Shown here in pieces: positions 1-30,201 of a stretch of 47,850 bases of DNA. Made by a program: the position numbers and the translations under genes. The notes beneath the pieces were generated by a model that saw nothing but the letters and a program-made list of their open reading frames with translations, did not search any database and had not been told where the DNA came from. Position 1 is the stretch's first letter. Every line of letters begins with the position of its first letter. The stretch comes from Bdellovibrionia bacterium. GTDB lineage: Bacteria; Bdellovibrionota; UBA1018. The stretch spans positions 1 to 47,850 of the forward strand of contig JBGAWT010000001.1 of the NCBI GenBank assembly GCA_044227445.1. The letters are read 5' to 3'.

Positions 1-336
1 GCCGACGATCATTTTGTTGAGATCTTCGCCCGTCTTAAGAAAGCTGATCTCCGCATGGATCTTTCGGCGATTCTTGTCAGTCGCCGAAACTTGGCCTATG
101 GCCCCCTCGTAGGGATCATTGTCGCTTTTTTCCGGACTCCATTTTGAGGACAGCCCCTTGATTCCATAATCATGTTGGAAGTGGCACCAGAGCGCCTTTT
201 CCTTGGGGTGCGCAAAGATGGGTAGGTAAACGCCCGCCGCGACACCGACGTGGTAGGTCGATTTCTCACCGTCTGCCCAAGACACAGCGGTGAGTAAGGA
301 CAGGATGATCCCAAAGAAGAAACTGGTTTTTGTCAT
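1..336 (-). CDS. hypothetical secreted protein, N-terminal part only (gene runs off the left edge)
   Basis: This is not in the ORF track because no stop falls inside the window. A reverse-strand ATG (334..336) opens a frame that stays open for all 112 codons down to position 1: MTKTSFFFGIILSLLTAVSWADGEKSTYHVGVAAGVYLPIFAHPKEK... The N-terminus looks like a Sec signal peptide. The track ORF 96..314 is in another frame and has Arg/Pro/Ser-rich junk composition. There is no clear SD. Confidence 0.5.
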   Translation of the reverse strand, partial: MTKTSFFFGIILSLLTAVSWADGEKSTYHVGVAAGVYLPIFAHPKEKALWCHFQHDYGIKGLSSKWSPEKSDNDPYEGAIGQVSATDKNRRKIHAEISFLKTGEDLNKMIVG

Positions 337-375
337 TGATTCATTGTGACGAGCGGAGGGGGATCAGTCAACAAA

Positions 376-459
376 GGTGGGGCCGGCGGGATTTACGCTC
401 CGTCGAACGGAATTTGGCTTCCGGTGCTCGGACTACACGTCCTCGCCTTGCAGCCCGGG
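376..459. repeat. att-like copy of the tRNA-Pro 3' end (376..394) fused to copy 1 of a 65-nt direct repeat (395..459)
   Basis: ggtggggccggcgggattt (376..394) matches the tRNA-Pro 3' end ggtcgggccggcgggattt (2977..2995) at 18/19 positions in the same orientation. The next 65 nt (395..459) are about 90% identical to 2781..2846, including perfect 36-nt (atttggcttccggtgctcggactacacgtcctcgcc) and 11-nt blocks. Confidence 0.85.
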
Positions 460-598
460 TTGGCTAGAGATGGCTAAAGCCGTGCCTATAAGCTTTGCCT
501 TCCAAAATCCAAGACTCTGAAATATTCTAATTGAAATACACAGTCCAAATATCTTCAAGATACTTACTCAACAATCCAAATTGGCATGGAGGCCAACA

Positions 599-2650
599 AT
601 GGAGCTAGTTTTCAAGAACTGTAACAGCATAGCTGAAGCGAAGATCCGAATTGAAGAAAACAAGCTAAACATCAAGTTTGGAATAAATGGTGTTGGCAAA
701 AGCACTATAGCTAAAGCACTTTTGCTGAATGCAAATGAGCCGTCGGACTTAACATCCTTGACGCCATTCAGATATCGCCAGACACCTCAGCAAACACAAA
801 ATGCACCAACCGTAGAAGGTGCAAATGGAATTAAAAGTGTCCTGATTTTTGATGAATCGTATATTGAGCAGTTCGTCTTCCGAGAGGATGAGCTAGTAAA
901 AAATAGTTTTGAAATCTTCATAAGAACTCAAAAGTTCAATGAGCAGATGGCATCCATTGAAGCCACCATCATAGAGATTAAAAAGACCTTTGAAGCAGAT
1001 GAGAGCCTCAGTGAGGTCATCACAGACCTCAGCGAACTCGAAAGATGCATTGGAAAAACCACTAAGAAAGGTGAATTATCCGCAGCCAGTCCCTTCGGAA
1101 GAGCCCTAGGCAAGGGAAACCAGACAGAGAAAATTCCTGAAAAACTTAAAAAATACTCTAGCTACCTTACCAATGGCAATCTTGTTGGCTGGTTAGATTG
1201 GCAGATTGATGGCCACGAATTTTTAGATACTTCTGATGCTTGTCCATACTGCGTCGCTTCAACGAGCGGGAAAAAAGAACTCATTCGGTCTGTTGGGGAG
1301 GAGTTCGATAAGAATGTAATAAAGCACTTAAATTCGATTAAGAAAGTGCTCGAAAGACTGAACGAATACTTCAGCGAAGCCTCTAACAAGGAGTTAGTCG
1401 CACTTCTCAAAAACACAGACGGATTTTCCGCGAAGGAAAACCTATTTCTGGAAACACTGAGAAGCCAGGTTGCCTTTCTTTGGCGCCATTTGTCTAATCT
1501 CAAAGAAATAAATTCTTTGTCCCTCATGGATGACGATGAAAAAGTCATCGAAAAGATAAGTGACCTATCCATCAAGATGGACGTCATACAAAAACTAGAC
1601 TCAGAGAAAACTCGCACTATTGTTGAAAAAGTTAACACCTCTCTTCGTTTAGTAATGGAGAAAGCTGAAAAACTTCAGCAGGAGCTCGCGGCTCAAAAGA
1701 AAACCGTCGAAGAAACGATAAATAAACACAAAGACGGGATAAATGGGTTTTTGCGATGCGCAGGGTATCAATACACAGTCGACATTGAGAGTGACCCAGA
1801 AACCAAGTCATTTAAAATGAAGCTAAGTCACAAAGACTTAGATGAATATCTGCCACATGGCGACGCGCATCTGAGCTATGGTGAAAAAAATGCGTTCGCA
1901 ATTGTATTGTTCATGTATGAATGTCTGAGTAAAAAACCAGATTTAATCATTCTCGATGATCCGATTTCGTCTTTCGATAAAAATAAAAAATATGCCCTTC
2001 TAGAAACCCTCTTCGGCGAGGCAACCGAGCTAAGGGGTAAAACTGTGATGATGCTCACCCATGATCTAGAGCCAATCATAGACATGATCTATACAAAGGG
2101 GAAAACTTATGGACATGAAACTACTGCGAGTTTTCTAAAAGCAGAAAACGGGACAATTTTTGAAATTCCGATAAAGAGAGAAGACATTGTTAGCTTCACA
2201 AAGGTTTGTGACGATGTCCTTGGGTCCCAGGAAGACAACATCATCAAATTAATACACTTGCGACGGTGGGCCGAAATTCAGAATGACAAAGGTCCAGTTT
2301 ACAATCTCATTTCTAGTCTCCTAAAAAAACGTCCTCTTCCAACCTTAAGAGATGAAAAAACAGAAATGTCGGCCGAGGATGTGAAATCTGCCACTATTGA
2401 AATCCAAAAAAGGATTTCCAACTTCAGCTATGGTGAGATTCTAAAGCGCATCAAGAACGACTCAGAAATGAAGCAATTATTTGAAACGTGCACAAATCAG
2501 GCGAAGCTAAGCAGGTATTTCGAATTATCAAGACTCTTCCACCTGAAAGTAGACTGCCGGTCGAAAAAACTAAAAGCAGGGATTTTTCTGAAGTTTATCG
2601 ATGAAACCTTTCACATCGAAAACGACTACATAATGCAACTTAGCCCCTGA
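599..2650 (+). CDS. AAA_13-type (RloC/PrrC-like) ABC/SMC-fold ATPase with a CxxC between coiled-coil segments; candidate anticodon-nuclease-type defence protein
   Basis: The track ORF is 581..2650 (TTG); the in-frame ATG at 599 (MELVFKN) is the more likely start. Motifs (track numbering): Walker A GINGVGKST (nt 680..706); CPYC at 1241..1252, flanked by long charged and helical stretches; ABC-signature-like LSYGEKNAF; Walker B DLIILDDP; MLTHD. The C-terminal ~130 aa contains R-x2-E (RYFE) and a His 33 aa later (ETFHIEN), loosely like the PrrC/RloC Arg-Glu-His triad as I recall it. The gene is clearly AT-rich (sampled lines 33-40% GC against ~53% in lpxC). Confidence 0.8.
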   Translation: MELVFKNCNSIAEAKIRIEENKLNIKFGINGVGKSTIAKALLLNANEPSDLTSLTPFRYRQTPQQTQNAPTVEGANGIKSVLIFDESYIEQFVFREDELVKNSFEIFIRTQKFNEQMASIEATIIEIKKTFEADESLSEVITDLSELERCIGKTTKKGELSAASPFGRALGKGNQTEKIPEKLKKYSSYLTNGNLVGWLDWQIDGHEFLDTSDACPYCVASTSGKKELIRSVGEEFDKNVIKHLNSIKKVLERLNEYFSEASNKELVALLKNTDGFSAKENLFLETLRSQVAFLWRHLSNLKEINSLSLMDDDEKVIEKISDLSIKMDVIQKLDSEKTRTIVEKVNTSLRLVMEKAEKLQQELAAQKKTVEETINKHKDGINGFLRCAGYQYTVDIESDPETKSFKMKLSHKDLDEYLPHGDAHLSYGEKNAFAIVLFMYECLSKKPDLIILDDPISSFDKNKKYALLETLFGEATELRGKTVMMLTHDLEPIIDMIYTKGKTYGHETTASFLKAENGTIFEIPIKREDIVSFTKVCDDVLGSQEDNIIKLIHLRRWAEIQNDKGPVYNLISSLLKKRPLPTLRDEKTEMSAEDVKSATIEIQKRISNFSYGEILKRIKNDSEMKQLFETCTNQAKLSRYFELSRLFHLKVDCRSKKLKAGIFLKFIDETFHIENDYIMQLSP

Positions 2651-2767
2651 AGTATGAAACAGTGCCTCACTTTCTTGTCGAAGAGTGTTAAATATCTTGT
2701 TTACAGATCCAGTCATCCCATAGCCTGACGTTTCTACTCGAGAGACTATCCTCAGGAACTATGCGAA

Positions 2768-2846
2768 GGGCGGCGGATTTACGCTCCGCCGAACGGGGAT
2801 TTGGCTTCCGGTGCTCGGACTACACGTCCTCGCCCTGCAGCCCGGG
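2768..2846. repeat. decayed tRNA-3'-end motif (2768..2780) plus copy 2 of the 65-nt direct repeat (2781..2846)
   Basis: gggcggcggattt is gggccggcgggattt with two 1-nt gaps. It is followed by acgctccgccgaacggggatttggcttccggtgctcggactacacgtcctcgccctgcagcccggg, which is about 90% identical to 395..459. Track ORFs 2759..2956, 2761..2997 and 2820..3020 cross this repeat and the tRNA, so I treat them as spurious. Confidence 0.85.
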
Positions 2847-2910
2847 CTCAACGCCCACCCGCAAGCGGGTTCCCGGGCGTCTCCGCCTTTCAAATCCCGC
2901 CGTAGGGTAC

Positions 2911-2928
2911 AAAACGCGTGCGCGTTTT
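2911..2928. terminator. perfect palindromic hairpin (aaaacgcg-tg-cgcgtttt), possible bidirectional terminator downstream of tRNA-Pro
   Basis: An 8-bp stem with a 2-nt loop, and the A/T runs form part of the stem. It lies 48 nt beyond the 3' end of the minus-strand tRNA. Its function is not proven. Confidence 0.35.
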
Positions 2929-2975
2929 GACGATCGTATACCGACCAAAACTTCACTCACTTTGTTCGTTTGTTT

Positions 2976-3053
2976 TGGTCGGGCCGGCGGGATTTGAACC
3001 CACGACCCCTTGCACCCCATGCAAGTGCGCTAGCCAGACTGCGCTACGGCCCG
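2976..3053 (-). tRNA. tRNA-Pro (anticodon GGG), CCA encoded
   Basis: The reverse complement folds as a cloverleaf: CGGGCCG TA GCGC AGTCTGGCTA GCGC A CTTGC ATGGGGT GCAAG GGGTC GTGGG TTCAAAT CCCGC CGGCCCG A CCA. The 7-bp acceptor is fully paired, the T-loop is TTCAAAT, and the anticodon loop is A-T-GGG-G-T with G37, typical of tRNA-Pro. Confidence 0.95.
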
Positions 3054-3104
3054 ATGCACACGTCAGTACCTAAGCCCTAAGCGGAAATCAAGGAATTGCG
3101 CGAC

Positions 3105-4064
3105 CTAAACGTAGGCGGCGTTAGCGGCCACAGCCAAAGCAGCACGGCGACGCTCTTCGCGCTCGCGGCTTTCGCTCGGATCGACTGGCTCGAAATTCTC
3201 TGCGTTCTTGAAGATCTCGGCCAAAAGCTGCTGGTGCAGATCGTGGCCCGCACGGTGCAAGCGCACCGACATCTGCATCGCGACGCCCGCTAGCTTGAAA
3301 TCACCCAGAGCGTCCAAAACCTTGTGACGAGCAAACTCGTCTTTGAAGCGTAGGCCTTCGGGGTTGAGCACGCATGCGGCATCTAAAACGACCGCGTTCT
3401 CAAGCGAGCCGCCCTTGATCAAGCCCATGCGCTTGAGAGCCTCAACATCGCGCAAAAACCCGAACGTGCGAGCTGACGCGAGATCGGTAAAAGGCGTCAC
3501 GCCTTCGACATAAGAATATTCCTGAAAGCCAATCGCGGGATGGTCCCACTCAACCGTACCCTTGATCTCCAGATGCGAGCAGGGCTCCGCAACGGCCCAT
3601 TTCTCACCCATCCTGAGCTCAACCTTGCGCTTGAGCCTTACGAGATGACGGCGAGGGGCCTGGCGCTCAAGCCCTACGGACTCAATGGCCGAAAAAAATC
3701 CATACGCGCTGCCATCTAAGATGGGCAGCTCAGGGCCAAAAACCTCGATACGAAGATTGTCGATGTGCAGGCCTGCGATAGCGGCCAAAAGATGCTCCAC
3801 CGTACTCACTCGAGCGGCGCCCATTCCCAAGGTCGTTGCCATCTGAGTGTGAACCACGCGCGAGTAGTGCGCGGGAATCTCAGGACAGCCCGGCATATCA
3901 GCACGGACAAAGCAGATGCCGGAGTCTGGGGCAGCTGGAACGAGGCGAACGCGAACGATCTCGCCTGTGTGAAGACCCGTTCCTTGAACCTCAACGGGAG
4001 AAAGCAGGGTTTGCTGAAAATTCGATCGCACGTTCAATCCACCTGGAACACTCAAAAGATGCAC
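3105..4064 (-). CDS. lpxC: UDP-3-O-acyl-N-acetylglucosamine deacetylase
   Basis: 319 aa with collinear LpxC motifs: QQTLLSPVEVQGTGLHTG, STVEHLLAAIAGLHIDN, PILDGSA, ARTFGF, FKDEFARHKVLDALGD. An alternative GTG start at 4031 is preceded by GGTGGA. Confidence 0.95.
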   Translation of the reverse strand: MHLLSVPGGLNVRSNFQQTLLSPVEVQGTGLHTGEIVRVRLVPAAPDSGICFVRADMPGCPEIPAHYSRVVHTQMATTLGMGAARVSTVEHLLAAIAGLHIDNLRIEVFGPELPILDGSAYGFFSAIESVGLERQAPRRHLVRLKRKVELRMGEKWAVAEPCSHLEIKGTVEWDHPAIGFQEYSYVEGVTPFTDLASARTFGFLRDVEALKRMGLIKGGSLENAVVLDAACVLNPEGLRFKDEFARHKVLDALGDFKLAGVAMQMSVRLHRAGHDLHQQLLAEIFKNAENFEPVDPSESREREERRRAALAVAANAAYV

Positions 4065-4344
4065 GGTCTAATCCCCTTATCGCTCCCACACCTGCACGAT
4101 TACTTAACTCAAGAGCAAGGAGCGTGCCGAACTCAGGAAATCTGCGTCACGAACGGGAATTAGACAAAACTGGCGTCGATATTCGACCATTTTGTTCCAA
4201 AATAAAAGCTCTATTTTTCATAGAGTTAGAAAGGCAAACACGCGATCGACTTGGCGCGTCAAGAAGTGCAAAAAAACCTGCTGTGCCGAAAGGTTACACC
4301 TCTGTGGCACTCTTAAAAGTGTGTGTGTGAGCACACAGGTTTAG

Positions 4345-5408
4345 CTAAGTTTCGGTGCGCTTCTGCAACACCGCATCCATCGCTGACGCAGCGGGCGGAG
4401 ACCAGACAAAACCCAGATGCTCGTACGCCAGACGAGTGGCCATGCGACCTCGGGGCGTGCGCTGAAGAAGCCCCTCTTGAATCAAAAAGGGTTCGTACAC
4501 GTCTTCGAGAGTGTCGCGCTCTTCTCCTAGGGCTGAACAAAGATTTTCGATCCCCACGGGCCCCCCATCGTACTTCTCGATGATGGAAGTAAGCAGCTTG
4601 CGATCCATGAGATCCAAACCCCGAGGATCCACCTCAAAAAGCGTCAGAGCTTTTTGCGCGATCTCGCGAGTGAGCTTCGCTTCTTGGCCTGCAAACACTT
4701 GGGCATAATCGCGCACGCGCTTGAGCAACCGATTGGCGATGCGAGGCGTCCCGCGCGAACGGCGCGCAATCTCGTTGGCTCCCGACTCATCAGTCGGAAC
4801 TCCCAAAAACTGCGAGGACCTGCGCACGATCTCTTCGATCTCGGTCACAGGATAAAAATCCAAGCGCAGCTGAACGCCAAAGCGATCGCGCAACGGACTA
4901 GAGAGCAAACCGGTGCGCGTGGTCGCGCCCGCAAAGTAAAACGCGGCAAGTCGATGCGAATGGTGCGAGCCGCAGGACCCTGACCCAAAATCAGATCGAG
5001 CTTGAAGTCCTCCATCGCGCTGTAAAGCACTTCTTCGATGGTCTTGGGCAGTCGGTGAATCTCATCGATAAAAAGGACATCGCCGGGCTGAAGATTGCTC
5101 AGCACTGCGGCTAGATCGCCTTTCTTCTCGACGTTAGGGCCGGTGACCAAATGAATCTGCGTCTTCATTTCCTCTGCGATGATGTGGGCAAGCGTCGTCT
5201 TACCCAATCCTGGTGGGCCCGCCAAAAGCACGTGATCCAGGGCTTCGCCGCGTGCGCGAGCAGCGGCCATGAACAGGCGCAGATTCTCTTTAACTTTATA
5301 TTGGCCGATGTAATCGGACAGATGCGAAGGTCTGAGGCTTTTCTCAGCCTGCACCTCTCCCACGCCCTTGGACTCGCGATCAACGGTACGAACGGATTCG
5401 GTTTCCAT
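4345..5408 (-). pseudogene. ruvB: Holliday junction branch-migration ATPase RuvB, split by one frame shift (fragments 4845..5408 and 4345..4908)
   Basis: The N-fragment has [20 protein letters not shown] and ...[10 protein letters not shown]. The C-fragment resumes with (GATTRTG)[11 protein letters not shown]... On the reverse strand the sequence reads ttt act ttg cg ggc gcg acc, so one nt is missing at the C-run 4928..4931. Confidence 0.9.
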
Positions 5409-27310: not shown

Positions 27311-29011
27311 TTGTCGTCTTACGTCGTATTAGCTAGGAAATGGCGGTCCGCTCAGTTCTCCGACATCGTCGGCCAAGGACATATCGTGCGGATATTGATG
27401 AACGCGATTAAACAAAACCGTGTTCATCAAGCTTATTTATTCACCGGCTCACGCGGAATCGGCAAAACCTCCATCGCTCGCATCTTCTCCAAAGCCCTTC
27501 GCTGCTCCAATACGACTGAGGTTGATGGCTGGCTGAGATCCTGCGATGCCTGCCCGAGCTGCAAAGAAATCACCGCCGGCATGGGCGTGGATGTCCTGGA
27601 GATCGACGGTGCGTCGAACAACGGCGTAGATGCGATCCGCGAGATCCGCGAAAACGCCAGATTCCTCCCCTCTTCAGGCTCTAAGAAGATCTACATCATC
27701 GACGAAGTGCACATGCTCACTACCGCAGCCTTCAATGCGCTCTTAAAGACGCTCGAAGAACCTCCTGCGCACGTGATCTTCATCTTTGCTACGACCGAAC
27801 CGCATAAGATCCCTGCGACGATTCTCTCGCGCTGCCAGCGCCTGGACTACCGCAGGCCAACGCATGCGCAGATCCAAGGCCATCTCACTCAAATCGCCGC
27901 AGCCGAAGGCTTGCAAGCCGATCCTGCAGCGTTAGCGCTGATCGCTCGCGCCGCCGAAGGCAGCATGCGCGACTCTCTGTCGCTTTTGGATCAAGTCATC
28001 GCCTACTCAGGCCAAAACATCACAGCCCAAGCCGCTCGCGAGAGCATCGGCCTCATTGGCGCCTCAGCGCTCATGGGACTGCTACGCGCCGTATTGGGCC
28101 GAAAGCCTGTCGAAGCCCTTAAAACGGCTGACGAGCTTTTTTCACAGGGGCAAGACCTGCGAGTTTTAGGTCGAAACCTCGTGGAGTGGCTTCATCTAGC
28201 GATCCTGCTGCGCGTAGGCGCAGACCCGCAAGGCTCGGATCTCTCCGCCGAAGAGCTCACGGAACTGCGTGAGATCGCGGCTCTGAGGGAACTTGAAGAG
28301 CTCGAGCTGATTTTCCAAGTTTTCCATTATGGGTTGGAATCCCTGGCTCGCTCGCCACAACCTAAGGCCCTGCTTGATGTGCTGCTCGTCAAGTGCGCAA
28401 CAGCTGAGACGATGGTTCCCGTGGCTCAGATGGAACGCGTGGCCGAAGCGCCGGCGCCTCAGGCCACTGCCCCCGTAACTCAACCGGCGCCCGTTATTCA
28501 AGCCGCACCAGCCGCTCCTGTGATTGAGGCGGCGCCGGCCATTCAACCTGCTGCTGCACCCATTGCTCAAGCACCCGCGGTACCTGCTGCAAATCTCCCA
28601 CGCACCTGGGAGGGCTTCATCGAGCAAGTCCGCTCCAAGCGCCCGCTTTTGGCTTCGATCTTAGAACATGGCACCTGCCTTGCGGAGCCGACGCTTGCAG
28701 ACCCCACGCTCTCCGTGGGCTTCTTGCCTCAGGACACTTACTACCAACAGCAGCTTCAGACGCGCACGTACGCCGATCAGTTGGCGACCATCGCGCGTGA
28801 GTACTACGCGTTCTCCGTTCTTAAGGTGCAGCTCCAAACCCGCGAAGGCGGCGAGAGCATGGCCTCACGCAAGGAGCGCGAGCAGCAAGAAGCGGTGGAA
28901 TCAGCCCGGAGCGCAGCGCTCAATCACCCGATTTTGAAGGAAGCCAAAGCTCTTTTTGGCGCAGAACTTGGACCCATTGAGGTGAGGACGGATGCAAGAG
29001 CAGCTCACTGA
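27311..29011 (+). CDS. dnaX: DNA polymerase III subunit gamma/tau
   Basis: 566 aa with a TTG start. Motifs: YVVLARKWRSAQFSDIVGQ, GSRGIGKTS, zinc module CDACPSC, IIDEVHML, SRCQRL, and an Ala/Pro/Gln-rich linker. Confidence 0.95.
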   Translation: MSSYVVLARKWRSAQFSDIVGQGHIVRILMNAIKQNRVHQAYLFTGSRGIGKTSIARIFSKALRCSNTTEVDGWLRSCDACPSCKEITAGMGVDVLEIDGASNNGVDAIREIRENARFLPSSGSKKIYIIDEVHMLTTAAFNALLKTLEEPPAHVIFIFATTEPHKIPATILSRCQRLDYRRPTHAQIQGHLTQIAAAEGLQADPAALALIARAAEGSMRDSLSLLDQVIAYSGQNITAQAARESIGLIGASALMGLLRAVLGRKPVEALKTADELFSQGQDLRVLGRNLVEWLHLAILLRVGADPQGSDLSAEELTELREIAALRELEELELIFQVFHYGLESLARSPQPKALLDVLLVKCATAETMVPVAQMERVAEAPAPQATAPVTQPAPVIQAAPAAPVIEAAPAIQPAAAPIAQAPAVPAANLPRTWEGFIEQVRSKRPLLASILEHGTCLAEPTLADPTLSVGFLPQDTYYQQQLQTRTYADQLATIAREYYAFSVLKVQLQTREGGESMASRKEREQQEAVESARSAALNHPILKEAKALFGAELGPIEVRTDARAAH

Positions 29012-29609
29012 CCCGGTTTCGCAGCTAATTTTCCAACTCTCCAAGCTCCCCGGAGTCGGAGAGAAGACCGCCACACGCCTGACCTATTTTATTCTCAAGC
29101 AAGAAGGCGGCTACGCACGCGCTCTCTCAGAAGCGCTCCTGGGCGCAAAAGAGAAGATCCACCTTTGCTCGCGCTGCTTCACATTCACAGACCAAGAGGT
29201 TTGCCGAACCTGCGCCAATCCACAGCGCAACGCCGCACAGATCTGCGTTGTTGAGCGACCTAGTGATGTGTTTTCGATCGAAGCCACGGGCGCTTACCGC
29301 GGCACCTACCATGTTTTGCACGGAGCGCTCTCACCGCTCGACGGCATCGGACCCGAAGAGCTCAAGATCCGCGAGCTGCTCGCCCGCCTTGAGTCTCAAG
29401 AGGATCGACCTGCCGTAACTGAAATCATTTTAGCGACCAACCCCAGCGTCGAAGGCGACGCTACTGCACTGTATCTAGCGCGCCTCATTAAACCGCTGGG
29501 CATCAAGTTGACACGTCTGGCACACGGCATCCCGGTAGGTGGGATGCTTGAGTACACCGACCGCCAAACCATCGGTAAGGCGCTCGAAAACCGCATGGAG
29601 CTGCACTGA
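28992..29609 (+). CDS. recR: recombination protein RecR
   Basis: 205 aa with LPGVGEKTATRL (HhH), the Cys4 finger CSRCFTF...CRTC, and the Toprim region VVERPSDV. It overlaps dnaX by 20 nt. Confidence 0.95.
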   Translation: MQEQLTDPVSQLIFQLSKLPGVGEKTATRLTYFILKQEGGYARALSEALLGAKEKIHLCSRCFTFTDQEVCRTCANPQRNAAQICVVERPSDVFSIEATGAYRGTYHVLHGALSPLDGIGPEELKIRELLARLESQEDRPAVTEIILATNPSVEGDATALYLARLIKPLGIKLTRLAHGIPVGGMLEYTDRQTIGKALENRMELH

Positions 29610-29610
29610 C

Positions 29611-30201
29611 GTGAGTTTCATCAACTACGCAAGTAAAGAGATCAACTGTAAGATCATTTACTTCGGCCCTGGCCTGTCGGGCAAAACCACGAACGTACAA
29701 TACATTTACGAACATACGCAGGATGGCCAAAAGGGCAAACTGGTAAGCCTATCCACAGAAAACGAAAGAACGCTTTTCTTCGATTTCCTGCCCCTGTCTG
29801 TTGGCGACGTGCGAGGGTACAAAACTCGGTTTCACCTGTACACGATTCCGGGTCAGACGTTTTACGAGACGTCGCGGCAGTTCATCCTAAAAGGCGTCGA
29901 TGGCATCGTCTTCGTTGTCGATAGCCAACCCGAGCGGATGGAAGCCAACATTGAGAGTTTTGAAGCGTTGGAGCGGAGCCTTGAGAAGCAGGGGTATGAC
30001 CTTCACAAGGTTCCGGTAGTTCTGCAGTACAACAAACGGGACATGCCGGGGGCGGTGCCCGTTAAGGAGTTGGAGGCGACGTTCAACCCGATGCGTCGTC
30101 CTTGGTTTGAAGCAGTAGCCAATCGGGGAGAGGGCGTGATGGAGACTTTACAAGCCGTCAGCCAGTCGATCATTCGGGAGTTGAAGTCGCAAGAAGCGTA
30201 G
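29611..30201 (+). CDS. mglA: Ras-like small GTPase MglA
   Basis: The track ORF 29539..30201 starts inside recR. GTG 29611, 1 nt after the recR stop, gives VSFINYASKEINCKIIYFGPGLSGKTTNVQYIY...LSTENERTLFFDFLPLS...RFHLYTIPGQTFY...LQYNKRDMP. From memory this is nearly collinear with Myxococcus MglA. Confidence 0.9.
   Translation: MSFINYASKEINCKIIYFGPGLSGKTTNVQYIYEHTQDGQKGKLVSLSTENERTLFFDFLPLSVGDVRGYKTRFHLYTIPGQTFYETSRQFILKGVDGIVFVVDSQPERMEANIESFEALERSLEKQGYDLHKVPVVLQYNKRDMPGAVPVKELEATFNPMRRPWFEAVANRGEGVMETLQAVSQSIIRELKSQEA

Follow-up and report, generated by a model that had tools for sequence, protein, structure and literature searches.

The anticodon nuclease RloC, a wobble nucleotide-excising and zinc-responsive tRNase, is defined by an Arg-x3-Glu-x36-52-(Ser)His triad (PMC2610378), is seldom linked to restriction-modification (R-M) loci (PMC2610378, PMC3458546) and carries an internal silencing and activating switch, built from a zinc hook and a DNA-break-responsive ATPase, that is thought to permit its transfer without an external silencer (PMC3458546). 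PrrC, on the other hand, which is the anticodon nuclease of the prr locus and acts on tRNA-Lys, is without the coiled-coil/CxxC insert and is always found within a type I R-M locus, which silences it (PMC3458546). A further, still unvalidated group comprises the 145 'phage defence candidates' (PDC), picked out by the guilt-by-embedding approach from loci of BREX, DISARM and type I R-M systems (Payne et al., 10.1101/2024.01.29.577857). Here, we consider a stretch of 47,850 nucleotides from a Bdellovibrionia bacterium (contig JBGAWT010000001.1, positions 1 to 47,850, hereafter the window), in which a gene at 599..2650 on the forward strand had been put forward, in a preliminary description made from the sequence, as a stand-alone RloC/PrrC-like anti-phage ATPase. 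Our analysis suggests that it encodes a member of the PDC-S06 family in which an RloC-like chassis is joined to a family-specific C-terminal domain, that it arrived on a low-GC islet and that the present copy is damaged, while a switch mechanism is proposed by analogy; we place the probability of this reading at roughly 0.7.

The family assignment is carried by the PADLOC profile PDLC04889 (PDC-S06), which aligns with residues 1-683 of the window protein over profile positions 1-669 of 693 (E 5e-242, 803 bits) and also matches all of 50 sampled homologues. By these profile matches the gene is a diverged member of PDC-S06; its nearest relative in a word-indexed protein search that matched 2900 homologues is 56% identical, and the protein is the sole member of its sequence cluster. 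The earlier label of AAA_13 ATPase fits the relatives rather than the protein itself. Pfam AAA_13 (PF13166; gathering threshold 36 bits) gives no match to the window protein at E<=1, and only ABC_tran passes its cut-off (32.9 bits), whereas the AAA_13 threshold is passed by 47 of the 50 homologues, with 55-75 bits in three that were examined. In these homologues, the matches are limited to profile positions 5-129 and 426-572 of 713, corresponding to the two halves of the ATPase head, and on this evidence the family as such is related to AAA_13.

The coding sequence specifies 683 amino acids (AA) and lies in an uninterrupted open reading frame (ORF, 581..2650) that ends with TGA at 2648-2650; the ATG at 599 is preceded, 6 nt upstream, by GGAGG at 588-592. 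Conservation was counted throughout in an alignment of 118 full-length homologues, in which all of the head motifs are invariant or nearly so, namely Walker A GINGVGKST (680..706, residues 28-36, with N30, G31, G33, K34 and T36 invariant), the ABC signature LSYGEKNAF (1871..1897, residues 425-433), Walker B with the D-loop DLIILDDPISSFD (1940..1978, residues 448-460, assigned from the homologue alignment and the Pfam ABC_tran match) and the H-loop THD (2057..2065, residues 487-489). Walker A and the signature lie some 390 AA apart, and the head is split by a helical insert of about 285 AA (911..1768, approximately residues 105-390), which in the secondary structure of the AlphaFold2 (AF2) model consists of a short stalk and an apical helical region. 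The insert holds the only CxxC of the protein, CPYC (1241..1252, residues 215-218), situated in a non-helical loop at residues 205-225 and constituting a candidate zinc hook; C215, P216 and C218 are retained in 118 of 118 sequences. The ABC/SMC-type head motifs and the wide spacing with its helical, CPYC-containing insert that the preliminary description had pointed to are thus borne out, and the CxxC is conserved. The AF2 model of the window protein (pLDDT, the predicted local distance difference test score, 77.5) shows an ABC head split by the helical insert, and a Foldseek search with this full-length model returned Rad50/SMC heads with adjoining coiled coil as the top PDB matches (E 2e-7 to 1e-5). 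When the family profile was run against PDB sequences, matches to the ABC C-lobe were all that came back.

For comparison with RloC, we used WP_000423308.1, a 738-AA 'AAA family ATPase' from a P2-like prophage of E. coli APEC O1. Its gene (L112:6933-9149; NC_008563.1 925932-928148) occupies a prophage hotspot between replication and portal genes. It is probably this protein that Anantharaman et al. 2013 describe as the APECO1_4465 ABC-HEPN family. NCBI and JGI give members of the WP_000423308.1 family the name 'wobble nucleotide-excising tRNase', and the family alignment displays an invariant CPFC together with R-x3-E-x39-(S)H, which is the Arg-x3-Glu-x36-52-His triad that defines the RloC nuclease (PMC2610378). 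When the profiles of the two families were compared with hhalign, they aligned at 99.6% (E 1.5e-23) over 453 columns. This alignment begins at residue 1, spans the insert and places CPYC on CPFC (window DWQIDGHEFLDTSDACPYC, RloC-type DWVKKGKEHYLDGSTCPFC), and it stops at the H-loop, around residue 500. The family therefore shares the ATPase and hook chassis of RloC from residue 1 to about 500 without sharing its nuclease domain.

Beyond this point lies an all-alpha C-terminal domain (2180..2647, residues 528-683), which had been estimated at about 130 AA and measures about 155 AA in the window copy and about 170 in intact homologues. Nine of its residues are invariant in 118 of 118 sequences, arranged in part as R555 R556 x2 E559 and K665 x3 E669 x2 H672 x E674 and further including Y568 and F609, while P581, Y611 and N675 are nearly so; H672 is the only invariant His of the domain. 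Such a set of residues looks like an active site. H576 was considered as a catalytic His lost from the window protein, where the position is K, and was rejected, as K also occurs there in six other homologues. A model of the domain from an intact homologue, built on a 30-sequence alignment, was obtained at high confidence (pLDDT 89.7, predicted template modelling score 0.86) and comprises nine helices and a beta-hairpin. Foldseek found nothing significant for it, the best E values being 0.38 for the PDB and 0.84 for BFVD and Csm6 appearing only at E 5, and a Pfam search of 30 isolated C-terminal domains at E<=10 returned noise alone, with no match to AAA_13 or HEPN. When the domain was searched with HMMER against 1.84 billion representatives, 544 matches were obtained (E<=0.001), and the best 150 of these all carry it at the C-terminus of proteins of about 700 AA or are fragments. 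Among these best 150 matches, the domain thus appears confined to the PDC-S06 architecture, and no relation was detected to the HEPN-type nuclease of RloC and PrrC or to any fold searched.

The domain is also where the window copy departs from its family. By tblastn of homologues against the window and by three-frame translation, we find that the ancestral frame changes three times within the last 150 bp of the gene. Near 2510, the sequence reads 'cta-ag-cag' where KLQ is expected, and this +2/-1 change opens a stretch outside the ancestral frame (2507..2590, residues 637-664, LSRYFELSRLFHLKVDCRSKKLKAGIF), while an alternative frame there reads QVFRIIKT..PE (AKQVFRIIKT..PE), which is the family consensus. 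The frame is restored between about 2545 and 2583, and KFIDETFHIENDYIMQLSP is again in frame. Finally, a 1-nt change in the C-run at 2644-2647 leads to the premature TGA and leaves the conserved tail as an out-of-frame remnant at 2644..2691 (PLKYETVPHFLVEEC, followed by a stop). About 27 residues are garbled, those at 637, 639 and 642 being unique among the 118 sequences, and the tail of 18-30 AA that follows QLxP in 116 of the 118 homologues is missing from the window protein altogether. At columns that are at least 95% conserved, it deviates in 18 of 141, six of these owing to the frame changes, where the median is 1 and the next highest count is 8. Mapped onto the models, the lesions fall in a single internal helix of the domain and cost it its terminal helix. 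Barring errors of assembly at the indels, the window copy is therefore probably inactive or in decay, and this weakens the notion of a stand-alone anti-phage module at this particular locus, although by the PDC-S06 match and its solitary habit the family is a candidate for such a module.

A second broken gene in the same contig, ruvB (4345-5408, minus strand), matters for the confidence to be placed in the islet gene's indels. It is split into two overlapping ORFs, 4845..5408 with RuvB_N and 4345..4908 with the lid and the C-terminal domain, by a 1-nt deletion at about 4925-4930 on the minus strand; the letters there are 'act ttg cg ggc gcg acc acg', against an expected T-L-x-G-A-T-T. Either this core repair gene has truly become a pseudogene or the assembly is at fault. 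Four overlapping ORF pairs were checked by Pfam; two proved to be complete genes with long upstream ORF extensions and two gave no match, and only ruvB is clearly split.

The explanation that survives best beside our own, with chances that we place slightly short of even, is that the gene is a non-functional pseudogene on a decayed integrative islet and has no present role. Three frame changes in 150 bp, compared with the one in ruvB that was detected in the other approximately 45 kb, argue for real decay, and the pseudogene view is also backed by the loss of the conserved terminal helix, the 18 deviating columns and the lack of an integrase in an islet whose counterpart in the closest relative has one. 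Yet the first 1.9 kb of the gene are intact, with every catalytic and structural invariant in place, and one of the frame changes is made good by another, so that ETFHIEN remains in frame, a circumstance that can be cited both for decay and against it. Moreover, the out-of-frame segments still resemble the consensus, which implies that the lesions are either very recent or artefactual. This explanation is in any case compatible with the assignment to PDC-S06 rather than opposed to it.

More doubtful, and in our estimation improbable, is that the protein is a genuine RloC/PrrC-type anticodon nuclease whose C-terminal domain is a very diverged HEPN RNase cutting tRNA anticodon loops. The homology of the chassis and the aligned CxxC would agree with this, the invariant R555-x3-E559 is like the first two residues of the triad, K665-x6-H672 loosely echoes the Rx4-6H motif of the four-helix HEPN core, and some homologues reside in hsdM-hsdS-X-Fic-RhuM-hsdR loci, a context described for RloC-like ABC-HEPN proteins (PMC3710099). 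However, no conserved His follows E559 at a distance of 36-52 residues, and 112 residues lie between E559 and H672. The semi-conserved His in FRIINxxxHxND was tried as the equivalent of the RloC His and rejected, there being no majority residue in the consensus and the hhalign values standing at 0.5-1.2%. In hhalign, the C-terminal profile matches the RloC-type nuclease-domain profile at 1.2% and the single sequence at 0.5%, no PADLOC model of RloC or PrrC matches the window protein (E<=1), and for the 50 homologues the 25 top-ranking PADLOC families do not include RloC. The AAA_13 matches of the homologues end with the ATPase head, and neither Pfam (E<=10) nor Foldseek recovers HEPN for the isolated domain. 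The R..E...H spacing that had been likened to the anticodon-nuclease triad does not occur in the protein; the nearest string, RYFELSRLFH (639-648), sits out of frame relative to all homologues. Of the comparison with RloC, then, the part concerning head and insert stands and that concerning the nuclease finds no support. We conclude that the window protein is in all probability not an RloC/PrrC anticodon nuclease.

Homologues of the gene are distributed patchily across many phyla, at 427 loci in a collection with one genome per species. They are also found on 906 PLSDB plasmids, chiefly conjugative enterobacterial ones, with no annotation other than 'AAA family ATPase', and on 24 IMG/VR viral contigs; on prophage contigs, the gene is often near the contig end. 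The PHROGs family phrog_2801 matches the window protein, and a tblastn search of the GenBank phage collection returned nothing. One allele on IncF plasmids, WP_000350638.1 (L082:7001-9139, E. coli plasmid NZ_AP027579.1), is 38% identical to the window protein; 725 of 5426 complete E. coli genomes (about 13%) carry it, with 750 of its 763 places being plasmid-borne, and it typically adjoins vapBC and has partition, rep and toxin-antitoxin genes nearby. Across 80 homologue loci, no partner gene is conserved, and lone occurrence is consequently normal for the PDC-S06 family and no oddity of the window. Around 10 of the 80 loci fall within type I or type III R-M or BREX loci, and in eight the gene is placed between hsdM/hsdS and hsdR, one of them in the order HsdM-Bro-HsdS-DUF2188-X-Fic-RhuM-HsdR (L061). 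Elsewhere, it comes after BREX PglZ-BrxL or a type III restriction enzyme, and a tRNA lies within 8 kb at about one-sixth of the homologue loci. As RloC itself is rarely R-M-linked and most members of the family are solitary, the missing hsd genes are likewise nothing unusual.

At about six of the 80 loci, the gene overlaps, stop to start, a gene for an SbcD-like phosphoesterase (Metallophos and SbcD_C), situated downstream in L030, L053 and L054 and upstream in L025, L049 and L063. These loci also hold an LmuB/SMC-like ATPase of about 800-1090 AA, and the group follows either BREX PglZ-BrxL or a restriction enzyme of type III or type I. They may represent a multi-gene variant, or merely systems that are co-resident.

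Neighbours of this kind bring up a further explanation, to which we give as little credence as to the anticodon nuclease: an SMC/Rad50-like ATPase for DNA maintenance or plasmid competition, with a C-terminal domain that would bind DNA or protein and be no effector. The top folds, being heads of Rad50, SMC, SbcC and RecN, speak for it, as do the SbcD-like phosphoesterase and the large SMC/LmuB-like ATPase next to the gene at those loci, and the frequency of the IncF allele beside par, rep and toxin-antitoxin genes. A maintenance protein is, however, difficult to reconcile with patchy, horizontal transfer across many phyla and with a presence inside R-M and BREX loci and on prophage contigs. 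There is, moreover, neither a conserved partner nor a long coiled coil, and the closest characterised relatives by sequence are defence proteins. That the gene encodes the ATP-binding subunit of an ABC transporter, as the Pfam ABC_tran match, weak NCBIfam matches to transporter ATPases and JGI names on homologues such as 'ABC-type Mn2+/Zn2+ transport system ATPase' would have it, can be dismissed, given that the NCBIfam matches cover only the roughly 90-residue signature/Walker B segment with scores 8-10 times under the family cut-offs, that a 285-AA insert of Rad50/SMC type splits the head and that neither here nor at the 80 other loci does the gene adjoin one for a permease or a binding protein.

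Returning to the PDC-S06 protein with its RloC-like chassis, the two chassis are homologous and both families mostly solitary, and they therefore probably share the same kind of internal ATPase/hook switch. By analogy with RloC, the ATPase and the Cys hook would hold the C-terminal effector silent until an infection cue appears, with DNA ends or damage, or the loss of restriction, as candidate cues. ATP- and DNA-dependent remodelling would then free the C-terminal domain to harm a macromolecule of the host or the phage, resulting in abortive infection. An internal switch of this type would account for a gene that travels alone. That the target of the effector is RNA of some kind we regard as unlikely. 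Somewhat less so, although still tentative, is the broader proposal that PDC-S06 is a sister family of RloC with a swapped effector, in which the same DNA-break and zinc-hook ATPase switch governs a structurally new, non-HEPN toxic domain, and that, with one allele on plasmids in about 13% of complete E. coli genomes, it would constitute a major, so far unrecognised abortive-infection module borne by plasmids, prophages and islets, of which the window copy has been recently inactivated or, should the indels be assembly errors, is intact.

Several points weigh against our main reading and should be taken together. In the literature that names PDC-S06, we found no assay of the family. The CPYC loop is modelled at a pLDDT of about 58-60, so that the zinc-hook geometry carries low confidence, and the insert is predicted by AF2 to consist of more than 12 helices rather than one long coiled coil. 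A catalytic role for the invariant residues of the C-terminal domain is putative, being read from their conservation. The abundance of the family on IncF plasmids, beside partition and toxin-antitoxin genes, would also fit plasmid competition or maintenance. With respect to damage, the indels could be assembly errors, in which case the gene is intact; the ruvB break in the same contig and the consensus-like nature of the out-of-frame pieces favour this.

The surroundings of the gene agree with the earlier view of an AT-rich, horizontally acquired gene beside a tRNA and without partners. GC content falls to 38-44% over 500-2750, compared with 54-60% on both flanks, and delimits an islet of 2.3 kb and 40% GC (AT-rich segment 460-2764) that lies 126 bp from a tRNA-Pro gene (anticodon GGG, 2976-3053, minus strand; ARAGORN, Rfam tRNA 59.5 bits), the 3' end of which points toward the islet. 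The islet is framed by imperfect direct repeats of 71-84 bp (about 80), DR-A on the left (376..459) and DR-B on the right (2765..2846), that are 95-96% identical over 71 nt. With 95% identity, the 19 outer nt of DR-A (376-394) repeat the 3'-terminal part of the tRNA-Pro gene (2977-2995), while in DR-B the tRNA-3'-like end is degenerate. A 32-nt core of the repeat occurs twice in the window, at both islet flanks, where 0 occurrences are expected by chance, and it was absent from the JGI metagenome contigs searched. With Rfam, positions 1-4200 yield the tRNA alone at E<=1, and the flanking repeat, of which about 65 nt beyond the tRNA-3'-like start have no Rfam match, is thus no known RNA. Between the right repeat and the tRNA, a third, inverted and degenerate copy of the tRNA-Pro T-arm/acceptor 3' end is present (2889..2915, plus strand; 27 nt, 78% complementary to 2972-2998), and this may be a trace left by several rounds of integration and excision at this tRNA.

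Within the islet, the ORF listing contains no integrase, excisionase or second gene. The AT-rich leader ahead of the ATPase gene (460..598, plus strand) shows the drop in GC and includes the Shine-Dalgarno sequence GGAGG; a consensus sigma-70 site was not found in it. On the left, the neighbour is a gene for a secreted, signal-peptide protein that runs off the end of the window, lpxC, ruvB and ruvA follow on the right, and neither hsd genes nor other partner genes are present near the ATPase gene. The closest relative (P0002, 56% identity) sits in a small island composed of HicA, the ATPase, three small ORFs including one with HTH_17 and then a tyrosine integrase, and another homologue (P0008) stands alone amid housekeeping genes. 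We infer that the islet is what remains of an element that an integrase, since lost, inserted at an att site resembling tRNA-Pro, an account that stays at this strength as no empty insertion site turned up in the JGI metagenome contigs or in the repeat search of the window.

Two further observations concern the window itself. Antisense ORFs of 59-158 AA run through the ATPase gene, for instance at 1162-1638 on the minus strand; no sign of coding was found in any, and the A-rich composition of the sense strand (AT skew +0.15 to +0.23) is their most likely cause. Far from the islet, at 29539-30201 on the plus strand and directly 3' of recR (28992-29609), an Arf/MglA-like small GTPase is encoded (Pfam Arf, E 1e-8). 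Such GTPases are a usual feature of deltaproteobacteria-like lineages that glide or prey, and thus hint at the taxon of the host.

Taken by itself, the locus is of little weight. PADLOC would label the gene automatically, the family is already catalogued as a defence candidate under the name PDC-S06, and what is new is this diverged and probably crippled member. Of wider interest is the family, a relative of RloC that appears to have exchanged its effector for a C-terminal domain without a recognised fold and that is very common on enterobacterial plasmids. The role of this domain, once shown, would tell if several effectors can be mounted on the RloC-type switch as a reusable chassis, and the 'AAA family ATPase' that is so frequent on IncF plasmids would gain a function.

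How the window gene compares with known systems can be stated at several distances. With the PDC-S06 family, it has in common the full-length match to the hidden Markov model (HMM), the single-gene format and the freedom from an obligatory partner; it differs from relatives embedded in type I R-M and BREX loci by lying outside any defence locus, and it is a divergent outlier with a frameshift-damaged C-terminus. With RloC, the family shares a homologous ABC head and helical insert, the aligned CP[YF]C, the AAA_13 membership of homologues and a usually solitary existence that at times gives way to R-M loci with Fic and RhuM, whereas the C-terminal domain shows no homology, the R-x3-E-x36-52-(S)H triad is missing and no RloC HMM match is obtained. 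PrrC is alike in combining an ABC-type NTPase N-domain with a C-terminal effector domain and in its place among defence candidates. It is, however, compact, embedded in hsd loci and equipped with a triad of the R320-E324-H356 type, while the window gene has its 285-AA insert, no hsd genes, no triad and no PrrC HMM match. The best structural matches are Rad50, SbcC and SMC proteins, which work with an Mre11/SbcD or kleisin partner and whose heads are similarly split by a helical insert, there a long antiparallel coiled coil; the apical CxxC of the window protein is like the Rad50 zinc hook. Compared with these, the window protein has a far shorter and segmented insert and an extra C-terminal domain, is only 10-14% identical and is accompanied by no Mre11/SbcD partner in the window. 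More remote still are the defence ATPases PARIS AriA, PtuA of Septu and retrons, Lamassu LmuB, AbiLi and MADS mad3/mad8, which give weak HMM matches to the head (E 1e-5 to 1e-21); AriA and the retron ATPases were also recovered by Foldseek, and the concept that is shared is that of an ABC ATPase serving as a sensor of infection. Whereas these ATPases work with separate effectors (TOPRIM, HNH and others), the family to which the window gene belongs has no conserved neighbour and carries a C-terminal domain of its own, fused to the ATPase.

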